From Amoebophrya sp. A120 (Eukaryota; Protista; Dinoflagellata), in NCBI GenBank assembly GCA_905178155.1, contig CAJINV010000005.1, positions 4,567,556 through 4,631,555 of the forward strand: DNA of 64,000 nucleotides. The letters run 5' to 3'. The notes under the pieces were generated by a model. It made no database searches and was not told the origin of the DNA. It saw only the letters and a list, made by a program, of their open reading frames with translations. Both the position numbers and the translations under genes were made by a program. This document shows positions 69 through 64,000 of the stretch, piece by piece (position 1 is the first letter of the stretch; every line of letters starts with the position of its first letter).

Positions 69-2201
69 ATGCACTGGCGCCCAGCGATCCACGAGGAAGA
101 GTTTCGCGGGGAGACGCGGTTCGGCGTTGTCTTGGAATTGCAGACGCTTCGGGAGTTCGTCCAGTTCTTAGAGGAACACCGGAAGGAAATTCGCGGCAAC
201 ACGGCGGGCGCGCTCGAGAAAGCCAGGCGCATCCTCGCAAAACGCGACCCCTTTCGGGAGATCGCCCACATCCGCGGCAAAAATTTCGGGGACACCTATC
301 TGCTGTGGCTTTGTGGGCTGCATCTTGTTGAAAGGGCTGACGTGGAGGAGTATTTTGACGACCCCGCAGCGAGCATGCGGCGCTGGAATTACCCCGCCCA
401 CCTTGCGGGGTTTGTTTTTCAAAACTTTTTGGATGAACTCACCCAATTGCGGCCGCAGACCGGCCCGCTGACGCTTTTCGTGAAGTACTTCACAAACTTC
501 CAGGCGGAGGCCCGGCAGATTGCATGGCAGTGGCTTGAGGACGAACATGGAATCCCGGCGAAGGTCATCGCGCAGCGGCTCGAGCGCGAAGGCATCGACC
601 GCCACACGATTCGCCAGACCCGCCCGGACGCGGCCACCCACCTGATGACCTTCGGATCCGACCGCGAGCGACGGCAGTACTATGTCGACGCATACCACGC
701 CCGCATCCGCGCAAACCGCCAGGCACACGCGCGGGAGTTCGCAAACCTTCTCCATGGTGCCGACCCGAACGCGATCGAGATGACACCCGGACAGAAAGCA
801 GCCTTCTATGAGTTCATGGACGGCGGCACCGAGACCCCTAACGCGGTCGCCGACGTTGTTGCATGCGACGAAGCTGCCGGGGCCGGCAAGGCCATTCTGA
901 TTCGTGCAATCGAGCTCGCCTCCTACCTTCGGGGCCTTGTCATTATTCTGCTCGCCTCCACCGGGCAGGCCGCCACAATCATCGGCGGCAAGACAATGCA
1001 CGACGGCCTCGGGATGACGATCGAGCTCGAGGACAGCAAGGCTTGGGGGGAGGAGGCGCAAGCACTTGCCGGCGCGGCCGACATTGTTCTGATCGATGAG
1101 GACGCCATGGGTAACGCTGAGTGGTTCGAGACTGGGGAGAAAAAGGTCGGCGATCAGACGCTTCTTTGGATGCAGGCCCTTGGCAAGGCGTCGGGCCGGG
1201 CACGCGCGAAGCCCTGGGGCGCGAAGAAGGTCGGGCTCCTCGGCGACACCCACCAGCTTCCCAGCGTGTTGCGACTCACAAAAGCCACGGACGCCCTTCT
1301 TGCTGGATCGCCGACGCCGTTCGCCCGGTATGTGGAGACCCTCCCACGCGTGCGCTACATCTACACCGACAACGGGAAACACAACCCGCGCTACGACACA
1401 CAGGAATGGAGTGAAGAGCTGGACCCTATTCGAACGGGCGAGACGAAGGAGATCGACCTCACCACCTTCGGGCGGGTCGGCGCTGCGGACGCGGAATACT
1501 CCTACCAATGGCTTGGGGAGCGTGTTCGCATTGGTGGCGGCGTCGATGCCCTGAACAAAGTGGAGATCGTTGTCGGCACCCATCGCGAACGCCGCCGGGT
1601 TCTCGGGGTGCGCGCGCGGGCTTTGCGTTCCCTGCGGGTCGCGTGCCGCACATACAAACCCCTGATGCTCAACATGCAGAATCCATTGCTTGAAGGCTTC
1701 GAGACCGAAGAATCGACACGGTCGGAGGCTCTGGAGCTCTTCATCGGTGAGCGCGTCGCCCTTACGGGCCCACTCAGATTATTGCAACGCACATACGCGA
1801 CCAACTCCCGCGGCATCCTTCGCGGGTTCGGCGACACTTTCGTCCTTGTGCGATTTGACGACACAGGGATGGAGGAAGAAGTGCCGCTCAACAGTACCTG
1901 GGAAGAAGACGTGGACGCGGATCCGGGCGCGCGCTGGTTGGTTTTGGCGATCGGGGTCCGTGCCAGCGTGGTCAGCACGATCCACAGCTTCCAGGGGCGC
2001 ACGGTTGCCCTCGGTATCCTTTACGTGATTTCCGTCGCAACCATCTGGGTACTCCATGGGATCGCCTTCACCATGCTCAGCCGGCCGCGAAGTCGCAGCC
2101 AGGTCGCGCTTTATCGCGAGGACGGGGTCACGACGTTAGAGAACTACGTCGACCTTGCGACGTTTGGACTACCGCGTCCGCGCGTTAGATGGTTCCCGTA
2201 A
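69..2201 (+). CDS. Pif1/SF1B-type DNA helicase, probably the C-terminal part of a Helitron RepHel protein (frame open upstream to the window edge)
   Basis: Motifs AAGAGKA (Walker A-like), LASTGQAA..GGKTMH, VLIDE, LLGDTHQLPSV, STIHSFQG, HGIAFTMLSR. Intronless, GC-rich, opposite strand to all host genes; no stop codon in frame from position 3. Confidence 0.85.
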   Translation: MHWRPAIHEEEFRGETRFGVVLELQTLREFVQFLEEHRKEIRGNTAGALEKARRILAKRDPFREIAHIRGKNFGDTYLLWLCGLHLVERADVEEYFDDPAASMRRWNYPAHLAGFVFQNFLDELTQLRPQTGPLTLFVKYFTNFQAEARQIAWQWLEDEHGIPAKVIAQRLEREGIDRHTIRQTRPDAATHLMTFGSDRERRQYYVDAYHARIRANRQAHAREFANLLHGADPNAIEMTPGQKAAFYEFMDGGTETPNAVADVVACDEAAGAGKAILIRAIELASYLRGLVIILLASTGQAATIIGGKTMHDGLGMTIELEDSKAWGEEAQALAGAADIVLIDEDAMGNAEWFETGEKKVGDQTLLWMQALGKASGRARAKPWGAKKVGLLGDTHQLPSVLRLTKATDALLAGSPTPFARYVETLPRVRYIYTDNGKHNPRYDTQEWSEELDPIRTGETKEIDLTTFGRVGAADAEYSYQWLGERVRIGGGVDALNKVEIVVGTHRERRRVLGVRARALRSLRVACRTYKPLMLNMQNPLLEGFETEESTRSEALELFIGERVALTGPLRLLQRTYATNSRGILRGFGDTFVLVRFDDTGMEEEVPLNSTWEEDVDADPGARWLVLAIGVRASVVSTIHSFQGRTVALGILYVISVATIWVLHGIAFTMLSRPRSRSQVALYREDGVTTLENYVDLATFGLPRPRVRWFP

Positions 2202-2497
2202 GTTCCCTACCCCTCTGCGCCCTTATGAGTATGCCGATCAATTTACTATTTTATTTCTTTTTTAGTGCTTCACTGCTAGCCCTTTCCTGGTATTTTGCCC
2301 CCGGGCCAGGCGCATGCTTTTCATTCCCACCCCTTGAAGGAAGTACTCCCAAAGCCCCCCCCGTTGATCGAGTTCGCCGCTAAGCCTTCGCCTTTATTTT
2401 ATTTGTCTGATACCCCCCCCGGTCTTTTGTCTTGCTTCTCTTGATGTATTTGCTTGGTGCTGCACCAGGTCCCTAACACAATAGGCCGAACCACACA

Positions 2498-2603
2498 AAC
2501 AAAGAAACCAAAAGAAACCACTGACCCGCTCTGTTTGCCCTTTTGTTGTGAACAAAGAAACCAAAAGAAACCACTGACCCGCTCTGTTTGCCCTTTTGTT
2601 GTG
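2498..2603. repeat. 53-bp tandem duplication
   Basis: AACAAAGAAACCAAAAGAAACCACTGACCCGCTCTGTTTGCCCTTTTGTTGTG at 2498 and 2551. Confidence 0.9.
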
Positions 2604-2709
2604 CGCCATCCGAAGAACACGCGCCGAGAAAGAATCTGCCACCCTGGTCACAGGCTGGCCAGCAGGTCGTGGCTGGCAATCTGGCCCCGGTGTGTTTTCG
2701 CTTTTCTTT

Positions 2710-3300
2710 GAGGTCTGAGATGTAAGACCTGAGCTCTGAAGTCCGAGGGGTGGCGTTTGCGACGTGATGCCTGAGATCTGGGAGTCGGGCTCCGAGGTTG
2801 GTTCGAGAGGCTCGAGGGCTGAGATTCGTGGTCTGAGATTCGAGGTCTGGGATTCGAGATCTGAGACCCGAGCGATGAGACTCGAGATCTGAGACTCGAG
2901 ATCTGAGACTGGGCTCGAGATCTGAGACTCGAGATCTGAGCCTCAAGATCTGGGATGCGAGATCTGATCTCTGAGATTTCAGATCTGAAGACTGAGACAT
3001 GAGGCGTGAGATCTGAGATCTGATCGCAAGTCTGCAGATTTCAAATATGAAAGTTTGAAACTTGAAAACTTGAAAGTTGAAAACCTGAAACTCCAAATTT
3101 TGAAACTTGAAAATTTGAAATTTGAAAACGTGAAACTTGAAAAATTGAAAACTTGCAATCTGAAAACTTGAAATCTGAAAACTTGAAATCTGAAAACTTG
3201 AAATCTGAAAACTTGAAATCTGAAAACTTGAAATTTGAAAATGTGAAATTGAAATGTTTGAAAGTGTGAAATTGAAATGTGCAAATGTGAAATTTGAAAT
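2710..3300. repeat. Two adjacent degenerate microsatellites: (GAGATCT)n then (TGAAAACT/TGAAATC)n
   Basis: 7-bp GAGATCT-like units ~2710-3030; 7-8-bp units (15-bp GAAATCTGAAAACTT) ~3040-3300. Confidence 0.9.
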
Positions 3301-3582
3301 GTCATATTTGCATTTGACGGATCCGGTTTGTCAAATCTGTTTTTGACGGATCCGGTTCTCGCTTCTCGGATATTCGACTCGAACTCTCCTCAGCTCGCAA
3401 CTAGAACTATAGGGTCGGCCGAGCACCCAACATGCAGATGATTCGTTTTCTACTTATCGCTTACTGGGCCCCAGCGCTGTGATCAGTCTTCTCCTGTCCA
3501 GTTTATTCTCCTTCGTGGTAAGTATTTTCGTACGCCCAGCAACGCACAAGTGGTTTTCACCAACTACTTTTACATTCTTATG

Positions 3583-6500
3583 TCACGCCAGCGCCTCCCC
3601 CACGGTTCGACTCACGACGACCTGCCTCACCTCCAGACTATGAAAAAAGTAGTGGAGGAGCCTGTCGGGGAGAAATCTGGGGTGAAGATTAAAGTAAAAC
3701 TCAGTGAAGTCGTGGAATTTCGATTTATTTGCATCACTTGTTCTCGGGTAGTCTTTATTGTCCTTTGCGCTTCCAAAGTCGTGCTCTTCTTGCTGGAGTT
3801 GTTCATCAGCCTCTTCCTCCAATATCTGGTGGTCGAAAATCCGAAAAAAACCACTATTCCTGTTGATTTGCTCCCTACTCGTCCGGTGCTGTTTCCTCCT
3901 CTTGATTTTCATTTTGCACGACGATGTTCTTGCCGCACTGGCGGTCCTCTGGTGTTCTTGCCTGCCCGTCTGATCCTGGTCCTCGCGGGATGATGCAGCG
4001 TTTTTCGGTGCTGGAACTGCTGGTGCATCTGCTTCTACTTGCGTTTTATTTCCGATAAAAATTCCACCGAATTGCTCCCGTTCTAATTTCTTCTCCGCAG
4101 CAAGAAACGCATCCAACATCCGGATCTCTTTATTGTCATCTCTTACTCTTTCATCCACATGATCTCTAGCTTGCGGCTTCGCACCATTTATTTCAGCTAT
4201 TTGCTCCACTTCTACTGCATCCGATGGATGATATGTTGCCCTGCCGCTGTCAGCACGGGTCTTGCTCATGATCGTAGCCACCCGTCTTTCCAAAAATTTT
4301 CGCAACGTCATGTAATAGAGTCTCCGGATATGCAACGTAAATTTCCCGTTGATGTAAAAAATGCATGATAAACTTCACCAATTTGGAGTGTAACACTTGT
4401 CATGCTAAACTAGGACTGATGCTCAGTTTTGTCATGCAGAAGCCACATTTGAATTTGTACGTCGTGTACAGGAAATTTATTGTGGATATCGAAGTTCGTG
4501 AAATTCTGGGAACGTCAACCCCTTTATGCATTGCAAAAGTATCGTACTCGTATAAATGCATTACAAATTTCCCCAGCATGAGAAATAAAATTTGTAATGC
4601 GGATTTACCTTAAGAACAAGATTTGTAATGCAAGTCTTGCATATATACGAATACGATACTTTTGCACAGGATACCCTTCAGCAGCAGTTGAAACACCTGA
4701 AAGCCCGCGCCGGTTATGGCGTTCTCAAACGTTACACTCTCAGCTGTTACATGAATTTTTAATGCAAGACTAGCACAGGTGAGAGGGAGACCTCCCTTGC
4801 GCGTCTTGCATGACAGGTTTGGTGCGGATTACAGTGCTATTTAGCCCTCCGGGAATTTGTCATGCGAAGCAGCTTGATAGTCTGGCGGGTCATGGTCATT
4901 TTGCATGACAAATCATGTAACAGTTGAGAATGTAACGTTTGAGAGCCCCATACCGGTGGTAGATTCCTTGTGTTCTTCTGGAAATGTGGCCGCGGCACTT
5001 CTTCTGGGCAGGTGCAGATCGGTTGTCGCATGAAGAAGATGACCTTCGTGAAGATGTTCGTCACCGTCCGCAAGAAATCGCACCGCGTTTTTCAACACAT
5101 GCGGGTAGTCAATGTGCAAAATGACTTATGAGAGTGCACAAGGACTCCCCCGTCCCTTCATTTGTGACGCAAAAACCCAAATCCAAGTGCTTCCCTGTGG
5201 CACTGCTTGCACGACAGATTCCGGACGAAGCCAAAACAGTACTACACGAGGCGCATGAATTTGTCATGCACAGGGTCCACGTCTGGTGGTGTTTGTATTG
5301 GTGTTCATGCAAAAGTACAAATGAGGGGGAGGCGGTGTGCACTCTCATATGACCTGTCGCACGGTGGAAGTCGGGCCAAACAAGTACTCTTTCGCGCCGT
5401 ACAAAATCCGGTGCTCCAGCTTCCCCACAACGTGGATTTTCAGGATGGTGTGCTTGTTGTGTTTGTCGTCACTGTAGTCTTCTTGTTGTTCTTCACGGCG
5501 CTTGATGTTCAGTGTGGGAGTTCTTCGTGTACTTGTTCCTGTGCTAGGCTTGCCTGGTGCTGGTGTCCTTTTGTTACTTGTGCGGGGTCCGCTACCACCA
5601 CTACGTGGTGGTCCCAACAACAACTGGTCCAGAGTCTTGACGTACCAAGAAGGCGCAGCGTCTCGTCGCTCTTGTCCTGTAGTATCTGATGAACCATGAC
5701 CACCTGGCCCATAGTCCTCACCCGCCGTGGCGTAGTTTGTATTCTTGTCCATCATGCCTAAATGCAATCCGCTGACCCCATCGGTAATCGCCGCCAGCCG
5801 CACCCCGCTATCATGCTGCAAAAGTATCGTACTCGTAGTAGAAATCGCGATTATGCATAAATGCAAATCGACGTCGCAACCGCAAGGCAAATCAGCATGA
5901 CACATTCCATTGATTTGGAATTTGTCATTCTGAGAAAGTTAAGTTTGTAAATTCGCAATTTCTACTAGCAGTCCCAGCACGAAGATATGATCTTGCAAGT
6001 CGTACCCGACTTTGTCCGCGAACTTGTCGTTCAGAAAGATGCTTTTTCTGATCCCGTCGACGATCTTTTGGTCGATGTCAAAACCGAAGGAAGTAGCGGT
6101 GACTTTATTTTTGGTCAAAGACAATTTCGTTTTTTTATCTTTTTATGAACTGCAAAAGTATCGTACTCGTATAAATGCATTACAAGTTTCCTCACCATGA
6201 GAAAAAAAATTTGCAATGCGGATTTGACTCAACAAAAAGATTTGTAATGCATGATTGCAATACGAATACGATGCTTTTGCACAGGATACTTTTCGACGCA
6301 CAGCAATCTTTTCCAAACTGTCCACAAAGGCCACGGCCCAAAGCATGCAATCTCCGTAGTGCGGCCCCACTTCGATCAACTCTAACTGCTTTATTTGATG
6401 CGGGAGGTGGTCGACTTCGTCCACGAGGCCTTTTCCTTTTCGTTCGTGCTGCTGAAGTTGTCTTCCATTCTCTTGTTCAGATTCCAGAGATGGTAGTCCA

Positions 6501-12540: not shown

Positions 12541-14255
12541 CAAACGCCCCGCTCCACCACACGCAGCATGAAACAACTTACTAAATAATCGAAGCGAACC
12601 TCACGCATAAGCATCTTCAGATCTTGAAGGCTTATATAAAACTCGATAAAGCTTATTATTGTTTTGATACATCAGAGTAGACCAAGGTTCTGCAGCCAGC
12701 ATGTGATTTCAAATATTGATAATCCTATTTTCACGAATGGGAACAACAAAAAGATGTCAACAATATCAATCTGAATCTCAACGGTTGTCAAAAGCCTGAC
12801 AACGTCTGCTGGTGCGCAACATGATTGATTCCGGTGAAACAAACATCTGCATATTTTTCGGCTCCGTTCCGTCTTCGTCAATTCATGAAGCTAGTAATAC
12901 ACTTCTACTTCATACCGATACACACATTTCGTTTTTATGAACATGAAGTTTTAGTTACGCGTGGATCCTAAATTCCATATACGGTCAATTGTATGTTGTA
13001 GGCTACTTGAAAAAATGTGAGTGCATGTTCTGTCAAACTTGATCTGAAAGTGAAAGTTAAAGCCAATGCGGTTACGTGATGTAGAAAATACTGCAGCAAA
13101 CAAAGTTTCGATTGTGTGCTTCGCAAAAGCAAAACCAAAATTTGATTTTGAATGAAGAAATGTCCGACCTGAAGAAAATATGAAAAAGTATAACTACCAG
13201 AAGAAATTTCGATATAGAATTCGTGTTGCTGTTCTACTCAAAGTTAAGTACTTCTACATTTGTTCGTAAGTAGAAACGCTGGTCGCACGTAATTTGTTCT
13301 TGTGGGGAAAAAGAATAAGAGAAATTATATTATTCGTCTGTAAGGAGAAGGATTTAATAATGTGCATGCGGCTGACAGATTGGATTCGGTTTCTCCGGGA
13401 AAAATTATGCTAGTGGCGCACGATGGCTCCGCAAGAACCGCTTGTTTTTCACTACTCAGGCTCGTGTGCGTACATTTGCGCGCAGTGGGATGTCACAGAG
13501 ACGCTGCAACACCAATCGTAGAAGACAAACTTGAACTTCGTGAAGATTAATCTAGAAGCAGAAGAACTCTGTGGGAACGATTTTTCACAAAAGGATTTCG
13601 GGTGCCGTGGTGTAGCTCGTCACGACGAGGACCTCTACGGGACAAGCGACTTCAACTCATCGCTGCTACCACCGTTTTCACGCGGTGCGGGGACCATTGC
13701 TTCAGCTTCCGTGCGTCCGTTCAAGGGAGCAGCCCCAGCAACCCCCGCACCGTCACTGTTGTCGGGTTGTCCCGTAGCGGAGCTGGCTCCATCGAACCAC
13801 TCCCGGCGCTTCCGTTTCAGAAAGTGACTCGCGTCGTGCCATGTGTCCGCGAGTGTTTTCTTCAAGATATCAGGTGGAAAAGCTCGAAGATCTCTCCATG
13901 ACAAATCAGTGCCGAGAATGCAACAAGTCAGAAATTCACAATCTTCTAGAGAACGCGACTTCTGCGGGTCATGCTGATATCGTCCGTAACTGTAACATCT
14001 TCACTTGAGGCGGCGCGCCGGCCTGATATAGCCACTGGAAGCTTGAGGCTCTGCGTTTGAGTCCCCTTTTATGCGTATTAAGTCATGCATGTCGGAAATG
14101 TTTTTGCAGGGGAAAAATCTATTTTCTCCTTCAGGTACGTTGGTAGCAGTATTTGAGTGCGATGAAAGGAAAAGTTGTTGACAAACATGCAAAAACTCTA
14201 TTCTCGTGTTCCTTCATGTAGTCCTCCCACAGCCACAGACTCGCACACTAATAAA

Positions 14256-17200
14256 TCACTTCGGCGCGATTGTATACAAGGCAGGTACAAGTAGCGTGGT
14301 CGTGGCGAGATCCTTGCTTCTTCCACCATACAGTTTCCCGAAAACCCCGGCTTGATGATTCACAACTTCCTGTTCGCTGAGCGGCTGACCTCGACCATTT
14401 TTCTTCGTGCCCACTGTCCTTGAGGTCTTCGGCCGATTCGGTTTGCTCGAATTGGTTTCGGAAGAGCCCCTGCTGGTGAACCAGGAAAAAAGCCGTGTGA
14501 AGAAGCCCGGCTTTTGTTCTTCTTCATCCGATCCCTCACCGCCATCATCATCATCATCATCATCATCATCAGGAGAAGCGGTAGCGGGAGCTTCATCACC
14601 GTTACCCTCGTTCTTTGTGATCAGACCTTTGACCACCTCCTTCACCGCAGCCGCCATTTTCGCGTGCCCCTTCTCGTTGGGGTAGAGCTGGTACTTCGCC
14701 ATGAGGCCCATGTCTTGCTGGAACCGCAATGGTATGCAATGCAAAAGCATCGCACTAGTATAAACCAGCCATGCTCCGGCTGCCGCCGGAGCGCAAGGCT
14801 GTTGGGTCGGGGCAAGACTGTTTGCCGATAGGACCACAACCCCGCGGGCCTATGCACAACGAAACACATTGCGCCGCGCCAACCCGCAGGACCACTTGCG
14901 CGCTTCCCGCGCCTGTGGGCGCTCTGCGCAGGGAGCAGCTGCAAAGACCACCGGGGGCGAACAGAAACCGCCCGGCGGGGGAGGGTAGCGCGAGAGGGTG
15001 GCGCGAGAGGGTGCGCGAGAGGGTGGCGCGAGAGGGTGGCGCGGAAAGGCGCCGAACAAAACAGCTCCGCGAATGGCCTGCAGTGCCAAATATGGGTAGT
15101 GCCATGCGGATTCGCGCCCGCTTCTTTGTGTTTTACCCTCTCGCAGACCTCTCGCAGACCCTCTTTTTGGCCTCTTTTGGGGGTCCCCGCTAATAATCCG
15201 GCTATACTCGCGGGTAGAGGTCGACAGAGGTGGCCGAGAGGTGGCCAAGAGGGTCCGCGAGAGGTCGCCCCTTATTCGCGCCACCTCTCGCCACCTCTGT
15301 CGAACTCTCGCGCCCCCTCTTTTTGACCTCTCTGCACCCTCTGAGGCACTTAGGCGCCGCCTTAGGGTGGGTCCTTCGGCGGGCTATACTCGCGCACCCT
15401 CTCGCCGGCCCTCTCGAAAGGGGTCCCGCGCCACCTCTCCACCTCTGTCGACCTCTTTTTTACCTCTTTTGACCTCTTTTTGACCTCTCGGCCACCTCTT
15501 GTTTACCCTCTGTCTACCTCTTTTTTCGCATGAATATAATATATAGTAATTGCAATACAAATTGGCCCAGCATTACAAGTTGAATTTATAATGCTGATTT
15601 GCCTTGAGAAAGAGATTTGTAATGCATAAATGCAATTAGTACGAGTACGATACTTTTGCACAGGATAAATGGCGATTCGTGCACTTTTTCCCAAAGCCGG
15701 ATTTCTTTCGGCAAGTAGGATGTCACAAAATCGGTTGTGTCAAGCTTCTGTGTTTCGTCCTGCAGTCCCTCCATGTCCGTGATTGCAACTCGAGGTCCCA
15801 GGCCCTTTTCCAGCAGCACCCCTTTGAAATAGTCCCACGCGGGCTGAGTCGTCGTGGTACTCGCGGCGCTGCCCGAGTCGGTTGTTTTGGTGGTGATTTT
15901 CCCCTCCCCGCGGAAGGGGTGAAACGACAGGTCGGGCAGGACGACCACCACATAGCGGCTGTAGTGCGTAAGCAGCGTGTTCACGAGGTCCTGGACCTCT
16001 TTGACGTAGTTCTTAATTTTTTCAGCGTCGCCGGTGTACGGCGGGTACCCACACAGGTCCAGTTCGGTCTGGGCATAAGAAGATACGTAGGAACTCAAGG
16101 CCCGCTCGAAGAACACCCCCGACAGCAGCTCGTAGGAGCCGAAGCTGATGGTCGTGAGAAAAATCTTGTCCTCGTCGGGCATCGGCTTCCCGTCCGACGA
16201 GGCCCACTTCGCCGGCTCCGCCCCCGTCCAGTCGGAGAAGTCGAACAGCCCCGCCGGCAAATTCTTCGTGATCGGCGGAAAGAAGGTCGTGGCGTGCGTC
16301 CAGTGTATCGGACCCTGCGTCCACCGCTGTCCTTCGTCTTCGTCCCCACCACTTCCAGCTGCGGCCTTCGCGACCACTTCCAAGCGCCGCGCATGCACCG
16401 GCGGGTGCTGGGGTGGGCCAACACCTTCACTGCCGCCCAGGTAGCCGCCCCGGCCGAGGAGCTGCTGCTGCGTAAAGCCGACATTGCCCGCGTTGATCAC
16501 CGTCAGCTTGCGCACGTTTTCATCTTTTGTCGTCCCTGGAAACAGTTTCTTTTTCGGCTCCGAGCCTTTCGCTTTTGCAGGACGAACTTCGAGGTGCAGC
16601 AACTCCTGCGCAACTTGGTTGACCCACAGGGCTGGCGATTGCGGGCTCACGTCCGGCCCGCTCGAAGAATCCAGCTTGCCCGCAGTGCTCGAGTCGCCGA
16701 GAAACAACACGGTCGGGTTGTTGTGGTACACACCTTCGGCGCCCTTGGCAAATTCCTCACCTTCATCGTCACTGTCGCTGAGATCGTCCTCGTCCTCGTC
16801 CGCCTCGTCAACATCCCCGGACGACTTGAACAGTTCCTCCAATTTGTCCTTCAGCAAGGTGGTGGCTTCTTCGAACATCTTTTGCGCTTCTTGTCCAGCT
16901 TGCTCGAGGACCAGGCCCAGTTCCACGCCCGCCTCGTTTAGCCGCTTCGAGACCTCGGTGTGGAAGAAATCCGCCCAGTAGGACAGCGTGCCCTCCCACT
17001 GCGACTGCAGCCGGGCCAGCTGCTGCCCTGACGATTCTTCAGTGAGTTTTGCCCCTTTCGGAGGCTTCTGCATGTTCGTCGCTACCTTGCGCAGCGGCTT
17101 AAACGAGCTGCTGAGTGGGATGGCCTGAAAAGCAGCTTGTTTGTTGCGATCCTGTGCGGGCACGGCGTACTGATGGATCTGCTTTTCGCCACACGATATC

Positions 17201-20200
17201 CAGTGCAAATCATTTTTTTATCCGGGTCTGAAAGGTGGATCACTTTCAATGCTCATTGATTTATAATCGCGAAAAAAATCTGCCTTGCTGGAGAAGCAAG
17301 AAACGTGCACTTCTCGCTAGCTGAAGAATGTCATTCGGCAATGCTCAAAACCATCTTTGTACCTCTACCGCTGCATTACAGACCGTCTCCTGGGTGCACT
17401 GAGAGTCGTGCGACCGACGGCTGCTTCACAAACAATTACTTTAGACTTTCACTTTTCCTCCAGCTCCAGATCCCAAAAATATAATTTCCACTTCATATCC
17501 ATGTAGAGCACAAAGCTGCTCCAGGGCATCCACATCAACGCGGCCTTTTGGTCATCCCAATTCTGCTATACATTGCAAAAGTATCGCAGCCGTGCAAAAG
17601 AGTGTTTTTGAAAAGGTAATGCTGAACAAGATGCGCCATACTTACTAGGCTATACATGATCTGTCGCGCTAAATTGCAATTCGTTCGAGCGCGATACTTT
17701 TCCCGAGGATATCTGCTGCCGGGAATACGGCTTCATGCAGGTTGTCGGCCCGTCTGCGTTCGGCGGCAGCTGCAGTGTCCGCAGATAGGGGTCTGCGGAG
17801 GCGCCCCGGCCCCCCGCGCCGGTCCACGAAGCTGGAACAAGAAAAGGAAGCCCACCCCCCGGGAGACTGGAAAGAAAGGCTCCATTCGCACCCGCGGCTG
17901 CGGGAGCTGCTCGCCCTTCGTCTGGCTTTTTCAGCTTAGAGTTCAAGTCTTTCCCCTCCACGCAACCGGGTTCCAGGATGTAAAACGGGGTGAGCGGAGC
18001 CTTGGCGACACTGCCTGTGCCTGCATCTTTGGCATACCCTTTTAGCTTGTTGTACTCTTCCAAAACGGCGTCGGCAATCACTTTGTGTCCCTCTCCATCG
18101 GGGTGAAGTTCATCCATGATTTTCCGGATTGCCGGGTCGGTGCCGGGCAAAGTCAACTTGTAGTATTTTTTGTTTGACGCGCATACTATCCAGGCCAAAA
18201 ACGACGATGCGAGTGCGTCGCATCTATCCGTCATCAAAGCACAACGCAAAATAAGAGGACGCACTTTAAGACAATGTGACACAACAGCACAGCCTCGCGG
18301 GTGGGCTTCATAATCAGGAGGACGAGGATTTGCTGGAGAAAACCTAAATTTATTTCTCTATACATTCGTTGCACCCGATGATTTCATGATCACCATCATA
18401 GCATACTGTGCAGAAAAAGTAAATGCAGAAAAGAAAAAGATGATGACGGACACTTGCGTTCGTTATCTTTACGCATCAAGTCTCTAATGTCATATCTCGA
18501 TCGTCTGCGCCGTCGAAACTTGGCAAGTAGTCGAGGTCGACCACTCCGACCGCCGTGTACTCCGCCGAGGAACCGTCCGCGTTCCTGATCTTGCCAATGA
18601 TGTCGGACTTCAAGTTTACGATTCCCTGCTTGTAAATGTCCCTGTAGTAATGCAGATTTTCCGTGTTCAACTTCCAATGGTTCTCGACGAGAGGTAGAAT
18701 CACAATTACGAACCTCGAAAATTTCAACGCCTCCGTCAAAATTTGCTTCATGTTTTTGACGAGATTCTCGGCCGTGTTTTTGTCGCTGAACTTGCCCTGA
18801 TTGACCTCGTTGGTGCCGAAGAAAACCGTGGTCAGTTCGACCTTCTGGTCCTCCGCTACGCCCACGTTGCCGACAATACTTGCTCTCACGTGCTGCAACA
18901 GGCCGCCGTCACCCGCCTGCGCTCGCAATGCCGGCTCGCCCGAGTTCGTGATCTGAAAAGAACCTCCGGTCGGGCCATGGGAAACCAGCACGCGCCCCGC
19001 ATGGGCATGTTGGCCCGGCTGGGACTGGATCGACAGAGGCTCCGCGCCCGTCAGAACCGTCGCAAACGCGCCGCTGTTTCCCCCATTGAGGATCTGCAGC
19101 CCGGACTTCATCGCCCCGTTTGTTCCACTCCCGTCCTTCTCTTCCTTCAACTTCAGCATCTCAATTCCCAATTTGTTGACCCACAAGTCCGAGCTGGAAG
19201 TACCCCCTTTCAAGTTGAAGCCCTCCGTGAGGCTGTCCTATGAACTGCAAAAGTATCGCACTCGTAGAAATGCATTACAAATTTCCTCAGCATTAGCGAG
19301 AAAATTTGTAATGCGGATCGACCTTGAGATAAAGATTTGTAATGCATGTTTGCAGTACGAGTACGATACTTTTGCACAGGATATGTCCCCCAGCGCCACC
19401 AAATCCGGCGGCGTCGGGCGTTTCGCGTAGTTCCAGAGCAGTTCCCGCTGCTTCTTCGCATCCGTGCCGAACCCCGCCTCGTTGGGCAAAACGTCCTGCG
19501 GCACGATATGCAATACAAATTTCCCACACGCGTAAGGCATCACAAATCATTCTGCCAACTTTCTTGTGGAGCACATTACTACTTGTCATGCTAAAAGTAA
19601 AAAAAGAATAGGATTGCAAGGTTAAAGCTTTCTGCACTTGTACGTGTACGGGAGGATTACTGTGGATACACATTCAACAGATGCACCAGCGTTTCGGTCA
19701 GTCGCGGCTTCTTCAGGTCCAGCTGCTCGTACTGCCCGTTGGCCAGGAACCGCAGGTCCTGAGAACCCCCGCTGAGCTGCTATAACCCGCTCAGGTGTTA
19801 CAATCTCAAGCGTTACAATAGAATTTGGAAATCTGTGATGCAAGAGTGCATGATCTAGCCAACTCTCATAGGATTGCGCATGACAAGTTCGGGAGCTCCA
19901 AACCCGACTACAATCTGGGAAAATTTGTATTGCAAAAGGTGGAACGCTGTGCGAGTCTGTCATGCTCATTATGCAAGACAAATCCCGGATTCTATTGTAA
20001 CGTTTGAGATTGTAACGTTTGAGCAAGTCATACCTGCCCGTTGGCATTTTTGAACGGGTTCCAGGCAGAGTCGCGGCGCCCGTGGTATCCTGAGTAAAAA
20101 CGTACCCACTACACCAGAGTTGTAATGCAGATTTGCAAAGACAGGAAGACTTGTAATGCGCATCCCCATGAGAGCCATTTCCAATCGTGTTTTGGAATTT

Positions 20201-28503: not shown

Positions 28504-31500
28504 TTAGTTTGTGATGTTCTTGTTCTTCTTCCTCTTCGTTCTTCTACACGACCAGGCCATATCAACTGTAAAAATGTCTGGGTCTGGAAAAATGCAAGTT
28601 TGTCATGCTTGTCTGGCATGACTCTTAAATCTGTCATGCACGTTACTCAAGAGCCCCACTTTTCTGTCATGCAAAAACGCAGTTTGTCATGCAGAATAGG
28701 CATCATATAGAAGCTCAGAAACTTGTCATGCTGAGCCAGCACTTGTGGCCTCCTCATGATACTCCACCCAGCATCACAAGTTTCCAGACCCAGACATTTT
28801 TACAGTTGATAGGCCACATTCACAGACTATTCGCGCGAAAAATTCAGCTGAAATTTCACTACGACGAGATGAAAACCTCCTCGCTGTAGAAATAGAAGCA
28901 GGATCATCACCATCACCTCCACTCCAAGCCTCTTCGTCAATATCCACCAAATCCAAGATTTTCCTCAAATCCGGGGTGAAGTATCCTGTGCAAAAGTATC
29001 GCACTCGTACTAATTGCGTTTATGCATTACAAATCTCTTTACTAAGGCAAAGCCGCATTACAAATTTGATTTGTAGTAATGCTAAGTGAATTTGTGATGC
29101 AATTTATACTAGTACGATACTTTTGCAGTTCATATGAAATTCACCTTCACCAAGACCCACTTCTTCCGTACCTGTATCCACAGTAAATCTCCCGTACACG
29201 TACAAATGCAATCTCTGCATGACAAAACTTGCCTTCAGTCCCAGTCTAGCATGACAAGTTGGACACTCCAAGTTAATGAAATTTGTCATGCATTTTGTAC
29301 ATGTACGGGAAATTTACATTGCATAACCTGCACATCATTACCATTACTGTCGTTCACAACAGCGTCCGCGTCTACCGCATTCTCATGGTCGTATATCCCG
29401 CCGCGGCGCGGAAGAGCCGGGGGTGCTTTGTTCACGCCGTAGTCTTCGTATTCACCTTGATTGGTGGTTGTCTGCCGCTGCCAGTGGTGGTCCCGCAGAA
29501 AATCGGCGGTCCAGATCAGGGGGAAGGCGGCGTTTGTTATTGATGTTGTATTTCTGTTTTTGCAGTTGCTGCTTGACATTTTATGCATGACAGACGCGGG
29601 ATGTTATGTATGTTTTGCATGACAAATTGGATGTGGATGGGTGTTTTCCTGGATAGTGGGTGACAGACTGGTTTCAATCTCCTCCACAAAGACCTGGTCG
29701 ACTAAGTTGTTACTAATCGTGTTGGCCAGCATATGGAAAGAAAAAAGTTTGTCACAGTCACTAACTTGCAGGTTTTGCATTACAAATTTTTTTAGCATCA
29801 CAAGTTTTCCTTGTATTGCAGAAACACTAGGGAAATCCCCTATGAAGCTTGGCTGTCATGCATTTTTACGCATGACAGCCAATTTTGTACTTATTGCAAA
29901 AATGCGCATGAGTGATCGACGTGACGAACTTTTTTTGTTTGATACAGCAACTCGGCTGCGATGCCCACGATGTCGCGACGAAAGGTTTCATGGATAGAGG
30001 TTATGAACTGCAAAAATGTCTGGGTCTGGAAGGTTGGAACTTGTATTGCTGGTCTTACATCATTCCTATGAAATCTGTGTTGCATGACTAACAAGAGTAG
30101 TCGCACCCTCTCTTTTCATCTCAGAAAATCGGCGGTCCAGATCAGGGGGAAGGCGGCGTTTGTTATTGATGTTGTATTTCTGTTTTTGCAGTTGCTGCAT
30201 TCCTCTGCTCCCTGCTTTGGTGTAGTTCTCCTCTGGTGCACTTCTTGTACTACAGCAGAGTCCTCTACTTGAAGTAGACCTCCATCTAGTACTTCTTATC
30301 AAATGTAAAAGTGTCTGTGTCTGGTGGAAACTTGTGATGCTAAAAGTGAACGAGAGTTCCACTGCAATACGGAGCCAAGCATGACAAATTTTTTGGGCTC
30401 CTATGTGTTGCGTGCTCCGCATTGCAAACTGCGTGTTTGCATGACAGAAAAGAGGGCCGCTTCGTGCCCATGCATCACAGATTCTTGAGTCATGACAGAC
30501 AAGCATGACAAATCTCAAAATCTTCCAGACCCAGACATTTTTGCATTTGATACTTCTCTACTTTGGTCGTTGATGTCATAGTTGTACTCCTCCTCGCGAG
30601 CAGGACTAGCACTTGTCGTTCCTCCCGACCGCAGTCGGACCCTTCCTGTCTTGCAATCCAGCACGAAAGCTTGTCGTAGTTCCTGCAATTCTCGCTGCAG
30701 TTTCCAGTTGTAATGCTGCTGCAGATTTTCTGTCATGTAGGACGAGGATGTGTCATCTAGCCGTTTTATTTCTGTGGCAACTGTAGTTTTCACTGCGGCT
30801 CCTTGCGTGTATTGATGTTGTTGACCACGCCCAGAACCGTGAAGATCCAGATTTACTTCCTGCTCGTGCTGCGAAAACAAACGCCACACGATTTCCCAAT
30901 CTTTCTCCCTGTATGCACTGCAAAAGTATTGTATCGTACTCGTATCAATGCATTACAAATTTTCTCAGAATGAGAAATCAAATTTGTAATGCGGATTTAC
31001 CTTAGTGAGAGGATTTGTAATGCATGATTGCAATACGAGTACGATGCTTTTGCAGTTCATACCCCCTCTTCGGTCTTCAATTCTCGAAGCAACACGTTCC
31101 TATCAAGTGCAAAAGTATCGTACTCGTACAAATGCTAATGCAAGTCTTGCATTACAAATCTTGTTTCCAAGGCAAATCTGCATTACAAATTTTATTTCTC
31201 ACGCTGAGGAAATTTGTATTAATGCATTTATACGAGTACGATACTTTTGCACAGGATAGTTCCGCCGCCGCAACAATACCAGCCCGCAGAAACTTTTCCC
31301 GACCATCACCAGTCGGACGGAGCCCTCGGAGACGCGGGGGTAAAAAGCCGTCTCCAGGATTATAACGCGCTCAGCTGTTACAATCTCAAACGTTACGAAT
31401 AGAATATGGAAATCTGTGATGCAAGAGTGCATGATCTAGCCAACTCTCATAGGGTTGCGCATGACAAGCTCCGCAGCCCCAAACCCCACTACAATCATCT

Positions 31501-34500
31501 GGCGCAATTTGTATTGCAGGAAGTGGAACGCTCTGCGAGTGTGTCATGCTCATCATGCAAGATCACAACTCTCAGATTCTATTGTAGCGTTTGAGATTGT
31601 AAAAACACCTGAGCGGGTTATAAGGATCTTGAATGGGGTCTTCATCAAGCTGTTGTTCTTTTGAGTGGTTTATCAAATGTAAAAATGTCTGGGTCTGGAA
31701 GGGTTGGGACTTGTGATGCAAACTCTGGAACCCACAAAAATTTGTGTTGCATGAGCGCCAAAAGCTGTCCATTTCTTGGCACGCAAGTAGCGAGTTTCTC
31801 ATGCGGGAAAGGCATCACGAGGCGTGCTCAAAACCTGTGATGCTTTTACCTGCATCAGAGGCTATTTGCGTGATCCGAAATATGCATGACAAATCTCGCA
31901 ATCTTCCAGACCCAGACATTTTTACATTTGATATGGTTCTGGTTGTGGTTCTCGTTTTTGCAGGTTCGCCTTCGCGTTTACTTTTACTGTTTGATCGACC
32001 AGCATCTTGTTCATCTCCCGAATCCGACAACTCATCCTCTATGCCAAAACCGGAGTCAACTGCCACTGCAGTGTCAAAATCGTAATTCTCATCAATCCCC
32101 GAAATCGCCCCCTGCACCATCGGGAAGGGCCGTTGCTCGTAGTTCTTCTCAAAAAACTTCTTCAAGTCTTCCGTGGTTTCTGTATCCCCAGAAAAAACTC
32201 ATAACTCCCATCAATTTTTTGCATGACAGACTGGTTTTGATTTTGAATGTGATGCATGTCTTGGATGACAAAGTGAATGCTGCGGATGGGTCGTGTTTTT
32301 TCCTAGATATTCTGTGTCCGATTTCTTCCCAACGACGGGAGACTGGCTCCGCTTATTCGCAGCAGTCGCTTTCATCTCCGAAGCGGTGGGCAGAATTTTC
32401 AACGGCGCAGCTTCATCGCCCGGCTGTAGCTCCTTCCAGGTCCCCACCCGGGAATCGGAGCGGTAAAAATTTCCCTTCGTCTTGTCGAGTTGCTTCTTGC
32501 ACAGAACGGTCTGGAAAATCTCGGTGATGCGGTCGTCGGTCGTCAAATGGGTCTTTTTCGGGGTGTATCAAATGCAAAAATGTCTGGGTCTTGAAGGTTG
32601 GAACTTGTGATGCTAACTTCGGACTCCAAAAAAATCTGTATTGCATGACCAGCAAGAGGAGCCCAGTTTGTGCTACGCATGGAGGACATTTGCCATGCGG
32701 ATTAGGCATCAGGAAGCTCTCTAAAAATCTGCGATGCTAGGTCATGCATTACAGACATCCTGGGTCTTGCAAAATATGCATGACAAACCCGGCAACATTC
32801 CAGACCCAGACATTTTTACATTTGATAGGGTGTAGGAAGGAGAAGCAGGTGGAGGAGGTGATGATCTTCTTGATTCTTGCGGCTCCTGCGCCGTTAGTTT
32901 ATTTTTCCCCGACGTTTCGAGTTCCCTTTTTGCCGCTGCGCCGACCGATGAAATTTTTCCCGCATGATCACGAAGAATTCTTTGGCGTTGCGGGTCTTCT
33001 GTAATTTCGTGCACTGCTTGTTCGTCACGACGACCACCGGCTGTTACTGCGACTCCGATTTCATCTTCGGTGCCCGCTCCTGCGATAGACACATTTGATG
33101 TGCTAGCCATATTATTGAACAAATGCTGATCCTCGTGGTCCACACCAGCGGTGGTAAGAGTACTAGATCTCTTCATCGGATTGTGTCCCGACGTACTACT
33201 TCCTGATGTCAGTTTATTCTTCTTATCTGCTCCTTCCAACACCAATTCCAACCCCAATTTGTCCAGCAGCTTTTTTTTCTGCTTCAAAAACTTCGCCCTT
33301 TTCTCGTTTTCCAGCTCAAAGTATCAAAAGGAAAAATGTCTGGGTCTGGAAACTTGTGATGCCGGGTGGCGTCTCATGATGAGGCTACAAATGCTGGCTC
33401 AGCATGACAGGTTTCTGAGCTCCTAGGTGTTGCCTATTCTGCATGACAAACTGCGCTTCTGCATCACAGAAAAGCGCCGCTCTTGGGTAACGTGCATGAC
33501 AGATTTGAGAGTCATGCCAGACAAGCATGACAAACATGAATTCTTCCAGACCCAGACATTTTTACATTTGATACAAAGTCCGACTTTATCTTCGCCAGCT
33601 CCTTCGCCTTCTTCCTAAACACGGGAATCACGTCTTTCCGCGGCTTCAGCTCGACCTTTTTCCTCTGGTAATCTTGCGGAAACGCCTCGTGCACCAGCAG
33701 CATGCCCGGCTCGCGCGCCTTTCTGGTTCTTGTAGGAGATGTTGATCCGGTTCCGGGTGGGGGTGGGGGTGAGAATGAATTATGGTAAGTAGACCCTGCT
33801 CTCGTCTTCGAAGCGTTGGTACTTGTTCCACCCCGACCGGTAGATGAAGAGATCGCACTACCTGCAATGGACGGGAAAGCACCTTTGTTATCAGGCGATG
33901 AAAGAACCTCCTCCTCGTCCGGAGGAGGTTTAGTTCCAGTTAGCTCGTAGACCCAGCTCGGCACGGTTTTTTTCAACGGTTCTTCCACGATTCCCTTCAT
34001 TTCCTTCTGCTTCCAGTATCCTGCAGAAAGGAGCTAGCATACCATATTTCGTTTGCAATGCAATAAAGAGGAAAAGCGGAGCAAGAGACAACTTGTTCTG
34101 TCGAGAAAACACTTTAAACTCGGGAAAAATAGGAATCCCCATGCTATGGCCAAGGAAAAGGTGTCCATTTGTAAGCCATTTGCATCCATTTGCAAGACGG
34201 AGAAAAACCCAAAACACCATGATTGTCTGTGCTTTACATGAGACAAATGCTGCTTTTACAAAATTGCAACAGATTTGCAGAAAAAAATTACTTCTGCACG
34301 CTATGGCGCTGTTTGGGCGCCATGCAAATGGACGCAAATGGCTTGCAAATGGACCTGTGTTTGCAGCTAATCACCATGAGGATCTGGAAAAAACCCAAAG
34401 CAAACTTTTTTTGTCAAAAAAACGTCCCAGATTCCGACTAAATAGTAATCCCCATGCTATGACCAAGGAAAAGGTGTCCATTTGTAAGCCATTTGCATCC

Positions 34501-35806
34501 ATTTGTAAGACGCAGAAAAACCCAAAACACCACGGGAGTCTGTGTTTTAGAGAGAAAACTGCAGACTTTGCAAAATTGCAACAGATTTGCAGAAAAAAAT
34601 ACTTCTGCATGCTAGGGCACCATTTGCACGACATGCAAATGGACGCAAATGGCTTGCAAGTGGACCTGTGTTTGCAGCTAATCCCCATGAGAATCTGGAA
34701 AAAACCCAAAGCAAACTTTTTTTGGCAAAAAGACCTCCCAGATTCCGGCTAAATAGCAATCCCCATGCTATGACCAAGGAAAAGGTGTCCATTTGTAAGC
34801 CATTTGCATCCATTTGTAAGACGGAGAAAAACCCAAAACACCGCGAGAGTCTGTGTTTTACAGAGAAAACTGCTGATTTTGCAAAATTGCAACAGATTTG
34901 CAGAAAAAAATACTTCTCCATGCTATGACACCATTTGCGCGACATGCAAATGGACGCAAATGGCTTGCAAATGGGCCTGCGTTTGCAGCTAATCCCCATG
35001 AGAATCTGGAAAAAACCCAAAGCAAACTTTTTTTTTCAAAAAGACGTTCCAGATTCCGGCTAAATAGCAATCCCCATGCTAGGACCAAGGAAAAGGTGTC
35101 CATTTGTAAGCCATTTGCATCCATTTGCAAGACGCAGAAAAACCCAAAACACCGCGGGAGTCTGTGTTTTAGAAAGAAAACTGCTGACTTTGCAAAATTG
35201 CAACAGATTTGCAGAAAAAAATACTTCTGCATGCTATGGCACCATTTGCACGACATGCAAATGGACGCAACTGGCTTGCAAATGGGCCTGCGTTTGCAGC
35301 TAATCCCCATGAGAATCTGGAAAAAACCCCAAGCAAACTTTTTTTTTCAAAAAGACGTTCCAGATTCCGGCTAAATAGCAATCCCCATGCTAGGACCATT
35401 TGCATCCATTTGCAAGACGGAGAAAAACCCAAAGCACAATGATAGTTTACGTTTTACAGCGAAAGCCGTTTTTTTTGTAAAATTGAAACAAATTTGCAGA
35501 AAAAAATACTTCCGCATGGTATGGCGCCATTTGGGCTAAATGCAAATGGACGCAAATGGCTTGCAAATGGACCTGTGCTTGCAGCTAATCACGGTAAATG
35601 CCAAACAAATATGATATGCTATGCGATTTTGTCTGACATATCCGTTCGTACTCCCTCATCGCCCAACCATGATTTGCGGGAGGCTTCTGCGGGGGGAACG
35701 CGCCCGAGCTAACTCGTTCGTTCATCAGCAACTCGTTCTTTTCAAAATTGTAGAAATCCTTAGGCGCAGCGACGACGGCTTGGAGCGATTGGTCTTGCTG
35801 ATGCAT
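28504..35806 (-). CDS. Multi-exon gene of unknown function (low complexity) with ~13 introners
   Basis: ORF blocks 35585-35806, 33512-34000, 32742-33287, 30515-30889 alternate with elements; join MREYER|KQKEMKG is in frame; 3' end approximate. Confidence 0.55.
28560..28811. mobile_element. Introner family A (252 bp, reversed relative to 7002)
   Basis: A-type TIR; TSD GGCCA. Confidence 0.92.
28982..29134. mobile_element. Introner family B (reverse orientation)
   Basis: TATCCTGTGCAAAAG...CTTTTGCAGTTCATA; TSD TGAAG/TGAAA. Confidence 0.9.
29175..29325. mobile_element. Introner family E
   Basis: TATCCACAGTAAATCTCCCGTACA...TGTACGGGAAATTTACATTGCATA; TSD ACCTG. Confidence 0.88.
30297..30552. mobile_element. 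Introner family A
   Basis: A-type TIR; TSD CTTCT. Confidence 0.9.
30912..31061. mobile_element. Introner family B
   Basis: B-type TIR; TSD CCCTG/CCCCC. Confidence 0.85.
31101..31258. mobile_element. Introner family B
   Basis: B-type TIR; TSD GTTCC. Confidence 0.9.
31361..31622. mobile_element. Introner family G
   Basis: TATAACGCGCTCAG...CTGAGCGGGTTATA; TSD AGGAT. Confidence 0.9.
31671..31933. mobile_element. Introner family A
   Basis: A-type TIR; TSD TGGTT. Confidence 0.92.
32183..32309. mobile_element. Short introner (I-like)
   Basis: TATCCCCAGAAAAAAC...GTTTTTTCCTAGATA; TSD TTCTG. Confidence 0.78.
32566..32827. mobile_element. Introner family A (262 bp)
   Basis: A-type TIR; TSD GGGTG. 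Confidence 0.92.
33322..33573. mobile_element. Introner family A (252 bp)
   Basis: A-type TIR; TSD CAAAG; close copy of 7002-7253. Confidence 0.92.
34017..35640. mobile_element. 1.6-kb introner containing a tandem array
   Basis: TAT...ATA ends with subterminal IR TAGCATACCATATTTCGTTTG / CAAACAAATATGATATGCTA; TSD TCCAG/TCCGT; in-frame join. Confidence 0.75.
34110..35592. repeat. ~311-bp tandem repeat, ~4.7 copies
   Basis: CCCCATGCTA anchor at 34137, 34450, 34761, 35072, 35383. Confidence 0.95.
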
Positions 35807-63861: not shown

Positions 63862-64000
63862 CGTATGGAAGCGTCAGGTTTGAAATAATCGCCAAAGTTG
63901 AAATAATTTGCAATGCATAAAATGCATGCCCCGAGGTGCGTGTGTTGCAGATCAGGCAAGTGAGGCCGATCGTAAGCCTGTTTGGGGTTACAGCTCGAGC

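Follow-up and report, generated by a model that had tools for sequence, protein, structure and literature searches.

The window, by which we mean the whole 64,000-nucleotide stretch of Amoebophrya sp. A120 DNA analyzed here, is gene-dense eukaryotic DNA crowded with repeats of 150-300 bp that have inverted ends starting from TAT and flanking duplications of 4-5 bp. These repeats fit the introner elements described for Amoebophrya, which in the text of PMC7789003 have inverted repeats of 8-20 nt or longer, direct repeats of 3-5 nt and non-canonical splice ends, and they fit in particular the end motif given there for A120 (TAT, seven bases, at least three A). One family, termed family B, is represented by 15 copies or parts and makes up 4.0% of the window DNA, two inserts excluded. 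The locus considered first is a minus-strand gene containing a family-B introner that is itself interrupted by a GC-rich insert, element 1. Its features, and the closest uninterrupted introner, are as follows.

15668-17217, minus strand: open frame of the host gene upstream of the intron; this piece has no Pfam match
14331-14727, minus strand: downstream exon, whose frame continues that of the exon upstream of the intron
14728-14732, plus strand: host target-site duplication AATGG, left copy
15668-15672, plus strand: host target-site duplication AATGG, right copy
14733-14764, unstranded: short part of the family-B introner, with inverted arm 14733-14760; carries the target flank TTTATACTAGT (minus strand)
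15550-15667, unstranded: long part of the family-B introner, with inverted arm 15640-15667
14765-15549, minus strand: element 1, a 785-bp non-coding insert of 62% GC
15543-15549, minus strand: 5' terminus TTACTAT, with A before it; these first 7 nt are common to element 2 (below)
14773-14792, minus strand: GC hairpin with a perfect 8-bp stem that stops 8 nt short of the 3' end; an outer stem reaches into the terminal CTGG
14981-15043, unstranded: 13-bp minisatellite within element 1, longer in the copy on contig L001 (below)
28982-29134, unstranded: uninterrupted family-B introner whose target site is empty; at 86%, the closest relative of the host of element 1

The host introner occupies 14733-15667 (935 nt including the insert), which with a further 5 nt gives an intron of 940 nt. 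Without the insert it is 150 bp long and aligns end to end with other family-B introners. Its inverted arms of 28 nt are 79% complementary and both are intact, the insertion point lying 4 nt to the inside of one of them. It is repeated, has inverted ends and is flanked by a direct repeat of 5 bp, and is thus like the published Amoebophrya introners; its ends also match the described A120 motif (PMC7789003). The earlier note had reported a 785-bp GC-rich insert splitting a family-B introner, starting with TTACTA and ending in a GC hairpin and CTGG, with the inverted repeats and duplication of the host undisturbed and the exons in frame, and both positions and letters were found to be exactly so.

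Several other arrangements of introners were seen. At 4326-4674, 19239-19670, and 28982-29328, family-B introners abut a repeated element of another type (about 200-290 bp), which suggests either an introner within an introner or adjacent insertion. A family-A introner at 29997-30200 breaks off near 30112, and a 77-bp duplicate of 29496-29572 comes next. Another family-A introner, at 33321-33573, is 95% identical to one at positions 1120-1372 of contig L002 (below); the two lie at different loci, and judged by sequence this would be a sign of recent introner activity.

The exons on either side of element 1 read through in frame when the 940 nt are removed (..KVHESP/LRFQQD..), and none of the six possible intron registers has GT..AG ends. 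Further upstream in the gene, at 18479-19237, there is a weak GDSL-lipase-like Pfam match (E about 0.002, below the cut-off). Four runs were compared against positions 14200-16400. An 8,309-nt contig (depth 100.6) from run X3, which is RNA only by guess, contains 15668-16400 joined to 14331-14727 without differing letters, exactly 940 nt being skipped, although the same joint would arise from DNA with an empty allele. At 14331, where the minus strand reads GT, the contig and the reference part ways, which is what another intron would produce; the next exon is unseen. Contigs from run X1 extend from both exons into the introner, and X1 therefore contains the unspliced form. The insert-bearing intron is likely removed from the mRNA in its full 940 nt.

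Read on the minus strand, the junctions of element 1 are ...TTGCAA|TTACTAT...hairpin...ATGGCTGG|TTTATACTAGT. Because the element and its right flank both start with TT, the boundary can be moved up to 2 nt; the insertion between A and T without duplication proposed in the earlier note fits, but it is one of three formally equal readings, the others being insertion between T and T and a 2-bp duplication of TT. The interior is composed of short AGAGG/CCTCT-type subrepeats in both orientations, and its open frames are low-complexity and differ between copies. The 3' hairpin exceeds chance: the last 71 nt fold with a z of -3.26, none of 200 shuffles being as good, and a comparable hairpin was present in 14 of 3000 random 45-nt windows. 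The 5' end folds at -0.7 kcal/mol, as did 185 of 200 shuffles or better, and thus has no hairpin. Element 1 has no TIRs, LTRs, or tail, and its longest exact terminal direct repeat is 4 nt. In three sequences the first 45 nt were compared with the last 120 for inverted repeats of 11-18 nt, asymmetric or subterminal, with at most one mismatch allowed, and none was present; the longest exact inverted match between ends was 5-6 nt. Rfam gave 14 matches to hairpin-rich miRNA models, all far below gathering scores, and these were disregarded.

A second family-B introner in the window is also split.

38315-43876, minus strand: element 2, a 5,562-bp insert (219 N, 122-bp tandem array), running from A|TTACTAT to a compound hairpin and CTTG|TTTGTAATG
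38260-38314, unstranded: first part of the family-B introner hosting element 2
43877-43974, unstranded: second part of the same introner; there is a 5-bp duplication, and the exons rejoin in frame

The earlier note had labeled element 1 as copy 1, implying a partner. Element 1 has no second copy within the window, and element 2, probably the partner meant, has no blastn similarity to it and only the type of ends in common. The compound hairpin of element 2 extends to the last base, and a 9-bp stem ends 10 nt before the end. Its tandem array (39280-41772) has 20 units, and an 8-nt direct repeat is present but not terminal. Its frames are read-throughs of repeats, and the one scanned with Pfam had zero matches; the host is a predicted non-canonical intron of 5.7 kb. 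Element 2 is also internally duplicated around its N gap (43012-43230) and carries 12-bp repeats close to the 5' end. Two candidates for further elements were rejected: a TTACTAT start at 34448 belongs to a single unit of a 311-bp satellite, and a match to hairpin-CTTG at 31163 lies in a plain introner. The satellite is an AT-rich tandem array between genes (34127-35592; about 4 units, 93% matches). A string of different minisatellites (53, 14, 15, and 29 bp) at 2243-3360 comes after a TTTACTAT motif and might be another repeat-filled element; no 3' end of the matching type was found for it.

Element 1 is almost certainly a real, multi-copy mobile element. X1 contigs on the element had depths of 819.6 (14764-14945), 1165.2 (15197-15343), and 674.3 (15314-15449), and the unique flanks had 25.8 and 23.9; very roughly, this corresponds to a family of 25-50 copies, contig depth being no strict copy number. 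One X1 contig starts at 14764 and could have been taken as proof of flanks that vary after a single T, but we dropped that reading because a variant position lying 31 nt within the element would make the contig break there too. Searching metagenome_contigs with a 27-nt pattern wholly inside the 3' end of element 1 returned two stretches, L001 and L002; exact end patterns of elements 1 and 2 had zero matches in genome_contigs and viral_contigs. L001 carries a full 894-bp copy at 2134-3027, 95.3% identical to element 1, in a family-B introner (2015-3059) that has its own 5-bp duplication; the gene is a different one, and removal of the introner restores its reading frame. In L002, the element's 3' end lies at the contig edge, in a family-B introner end. 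On the same contig (2570-3137), this element-bearing end comes after the beginning of a different repeated element with TAT ends, 74% similar to window 63864-63980, a probable three-level nesting. In X8, an estuary metagenome from which the exons are absent, a depth-6 contig over 14740-14864 has 12 differing letters and runs 25 nt into an introner-like flank; it is consistent with another copy occupying the same site, and may also be the L002 locus. The earlier note had named differing boundaries or duplications in other copies, or a single-copy sequence, as grounds for abandoning its interpretation; instead, the ends are conserved in L001 and L002, and X1 depth is high.

The most striking point, absent from the earlier note, is that all three readable copies occupy one identical base of family-B introners, although these are three junctions of perhaps 25-50 copies. 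The 3' junction is CTGG|TTTATACTAGT within a family-B introner in all three (window, L001, L002), the window copy being the one that led to the discovery, and the 5' junction is A|TTACTATATATT in both copies readable there (window and L001). The element termini are likewise identical, at both ends between the window and L001 and at the 3' end for L002.

Separate, sequence-directed insertions are the probable cause. A single ancient insertion could also have been spread passively, by copying of a composite introner or by gene conversion, the host halves being later recombined among thousands of family-B copies. Such a history would account for the identical site with its 11-nt 3' flank in all three copies, and the hosts in the window and L001 have in common the less common TTGTATTGC directly upstream. 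In an alignment and tree of 15 family-B rows (one truncated row of 16 was omitted), the three occupied hosts also fall in one weakly supported group of five rows (85/85, not starred). However, the full elements in the window and L001 are identical at 748 of 785 positions (37 differ), whereas their hosts are identical at only 124 of 148 (24 differ; 80% in the multiple alignment), a difference with a Fisher p of 3.7e-6. Element identity of 95% against host identity of 80-84% points to separate insertions rather than composite copying, and the 95% identity of the family-A introners in L002 and the window means that low host identity is not merely a property of introner DNA. Moreover, 34 of the 105 host pairs are closer than these two occupied hosts, the nearest relative of the window host is the empty family-B copy at 28982-29134, and the two hosts already mismatch 2 nt from the 5' junction (GCAA vs. 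GCGA). Element 2, in turn, shows ends of this type inserting afresh at another site. We consider passive spread unlikely.

The start of the elements themselves and both targets seen have A^TT-W-N-TA in common. In the window, 37 of the 64 ATTT[AG]TA sites lie in family B and 49 in any repeated introner; for ATTTATAC, the six sites are all in family B. A 7-nt preference, together with the concentration of the motif in introners, would account for much of the nesting with no need for adaptation to splicing, and this bears on the parasite of a parasite described in the earlier note. What stands is a multi-copy mobile element with conserved ends, nested in an introner; the proposed use of introners as safe havens, on the other hand, competes with a short sequence preference plus selection. 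The 7-nt preference does not, on a rough and post hoc reckoning, explain the same base being hit three times: the observed flank is present at 2 of about 66 window sites of the 7-nt type, which gives ~1e-3 for two further copies, a rough figure for a motif chosen post hoc. The same figure weighs against an ordinary non-autonomous Helitron with a loose AT-rich preference, in which the introner location would reflect the insertions that survive in a gene-dense genome and the recurrence at one site would be small-sample luck. Introners are AT-richer islands here, Helraiser favors AT-rich DNA 3' of its insertions (PMC4778049), and secondary insertion of TEs in introns is common enough, in the account of PMC9860276, to be filtered in introner surveys; nonetheless, 83% of the window is outside repeated introners, and this explanation appears improbable. 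The best reading of element 1 is a non-autonomous rolling-circle element with a preference for a target sequence found mostly in introners.

By analogy with the Helraiser model, element 1 would likely be mobilized by a Helitron-type rolling-circle enzyme made elsewhere. An HUH transposase would nick at A^TTACTAT and displace one strand (PMC4778049), pause at the 3' hairpin and nick after CTGG, and the strand would then be joined, with no duplication, into the target A^TTTATAC. A single recognition preference would serve donor and target alike, since both contain A^TT-W-N-TA. With this AT-rich motif concentrated in introners, insertions that spare the host arms would still be removed from the mRNA and would escape selection. 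We hold a rolling-circle mechanism to be quite probable.

Reviews give the Helitron start as T(C/T), and a 5' TT may be a known variant; a literature search for published 5'-TT Helitrons gave nothing relevant. Instead of the 5' TC of HLE1, both window elements and the L001 copy start with TT. The 3' end is CTGG, a CTRR, in all three copies of element 1 and CTTG in element 2, and the stems lie 8 and 10 nt, respectively, from the 3' end, about where an HLE1 hairpin is expected (10-12 nt). Of the Helitron hallmarks invoked in the earlier note, the hairpin and CTRR stand for element 1, and the A|T insertion is inseparable from T|T or a TT duplication; the 5' end is not TC, the note having called TT a variant, and no RepHel partner was found. 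Pfam scans of 16 of the 147 long frames in the window gave none matching an HUH or helicase family, and Farhat et al. report, in the text of PMC7789003, that no transposase was found in A120, an absence that either weighs against an intact partner or reflects its divergence. Element 1 behaves like a non-autonomous HLE1 but is not filed as a member, because it lacks the 5' TC and a candidate partner.

An enzyme other than an HLE1-type RepHel, either an HLE2/Helentron inserting in TT or a strict-target HUH enzyme (IS91-like, IS200/IS605-like, or Replitron), is doubtful, and slightly more so than a loose AT-rich preference. TT on both sides fits the T-rich boundaries of Helentrons (PMC4067079), and strict targets with no duplication are common among HUH elements (PMC10288648), but the asymmetric or subterminal inverted repeats of HLE2/Helentron (11-18 nt), a 5' hairpin and the short terminal direct repeats of Replitrons are all lacking. 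A double-strand element with ends ACTAT...CTGG and a 2-bp TT duplication is formally equal wherever both ends could be read (elements 1 and 2 of the window and the L001 copy), but TIR (DDE) transposons and MITEs have TIRs with a target duplication, the insert has no TIR, LTR, or tail, and a terminal hairpin is present in two unrelated families, making this very improbable.

Set against known systems, the elements resemble HLE1/Helraiser in having no TIR, a 3' hairpin about 8-11 nt from the end, internal minisatellites, a CTRR (element 1) or CTTG (element 2) end, and junctions compatible with A|T insertion without duplication (PMC11417382, PMC4778049, PMC4067079); CTTG ends are also known for Helraiser itself and in maize (PMC4778049). 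Unlike HLE1, they have a 5' TT, an outer stem that takes in the terminal bases and an apparent 11-nt target, with the RepHel partner not found. TT at both boundaries, a T-rich target, a 3' stem-loop, and central repeats are shared with HLE2 (Helitron2, Helentron, DINE-1/HINE; PMC4067079, PMC5148889), whose subterminal or asymmetric inverted repeats and 5' hairpin are missing here. Within the alveolates, Paramecium Helitrons have unusual ends and satellites (PMC13085455).

Among target-specific elements, Tx1L targets a DNA transposon. Like Dada, Pokey, CryptonV, and TE-targeting non-LTR elements such as Tx1L, element 1 occupies a single position in a multicopy sequence, so that harm is limited, but those listed in the text of PMC8869645 are DDE, tyrosine-recombinase, or retro-elements, with no rolling-circle element among them, and the target here is a spliced introner. 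In Micromonas, mobile DNA likewise lies inside introners (PMC3879977), but there it is an introner within an introner, whereas here the passenger is of another class. The words 'Helitron' and 'nested' occur nowhere in the text of Farhat et al. 2021 (PMC7789003), a scope that does not extend to its repeat-class Fig. S4; the family table of Gozashti et al. 2025 has 18 'Helitron' entries, all of them outside its Amoebophrya rows (PMC12130899, including 12 of 14 supplements), and the text of PMC12005148 has no DNA transposons identified in another Amoebophrya. Our literature search, with most subscription journals outside its scope, turned up no published Helitron-like element that targets introners, nor any eukaryotic rolling-circle transposon that aims a long target sequence at another mobile element. 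Nested cases would be missed because introner pipelines filter them out. Overall, the element is real and multi-copy, probably rolling-circle, and probably inserted repeatedly at one base of an introner that is likely still spliced.

Taken as a whole, we lean slightly toward element 1 being a repeated non-coding element, likely of Helitron type, likely inserted separately and by sequence at one base of family-B introners, and likely spliced out with its host intron, so that it would spread among genes and leave them intact. A broader proposal, that at least two unrelated rolling-circle families have evolved long specificity for fixed bases of a MITE-like introner family, as site-specific, Helitron-like hyperparasites whose new copies each land in a gene yet are spliced out, is tentative, and we would not put it at even chances. 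Removal of the intron appears to remain exact with an interior that is six-fold longer and GC-rich (and with a predicted 5.7 kb at element 2). Exact removal would be expected if the paired ends guide splicing, and the locus offers a natural experiment on how the non-GT-AG introns of Amoebophrya are removed. If the site is not shared, element 1 is a non-autonomous Helitron-like repeat of the ordinary kind that sits in an intron. If most copies do share it, this would be a eukaryotic rolling-circle transposon that recognizes a long target sequence and is directed at another mobile element, and its transposase would be interesting for the targeted integration of single strands.
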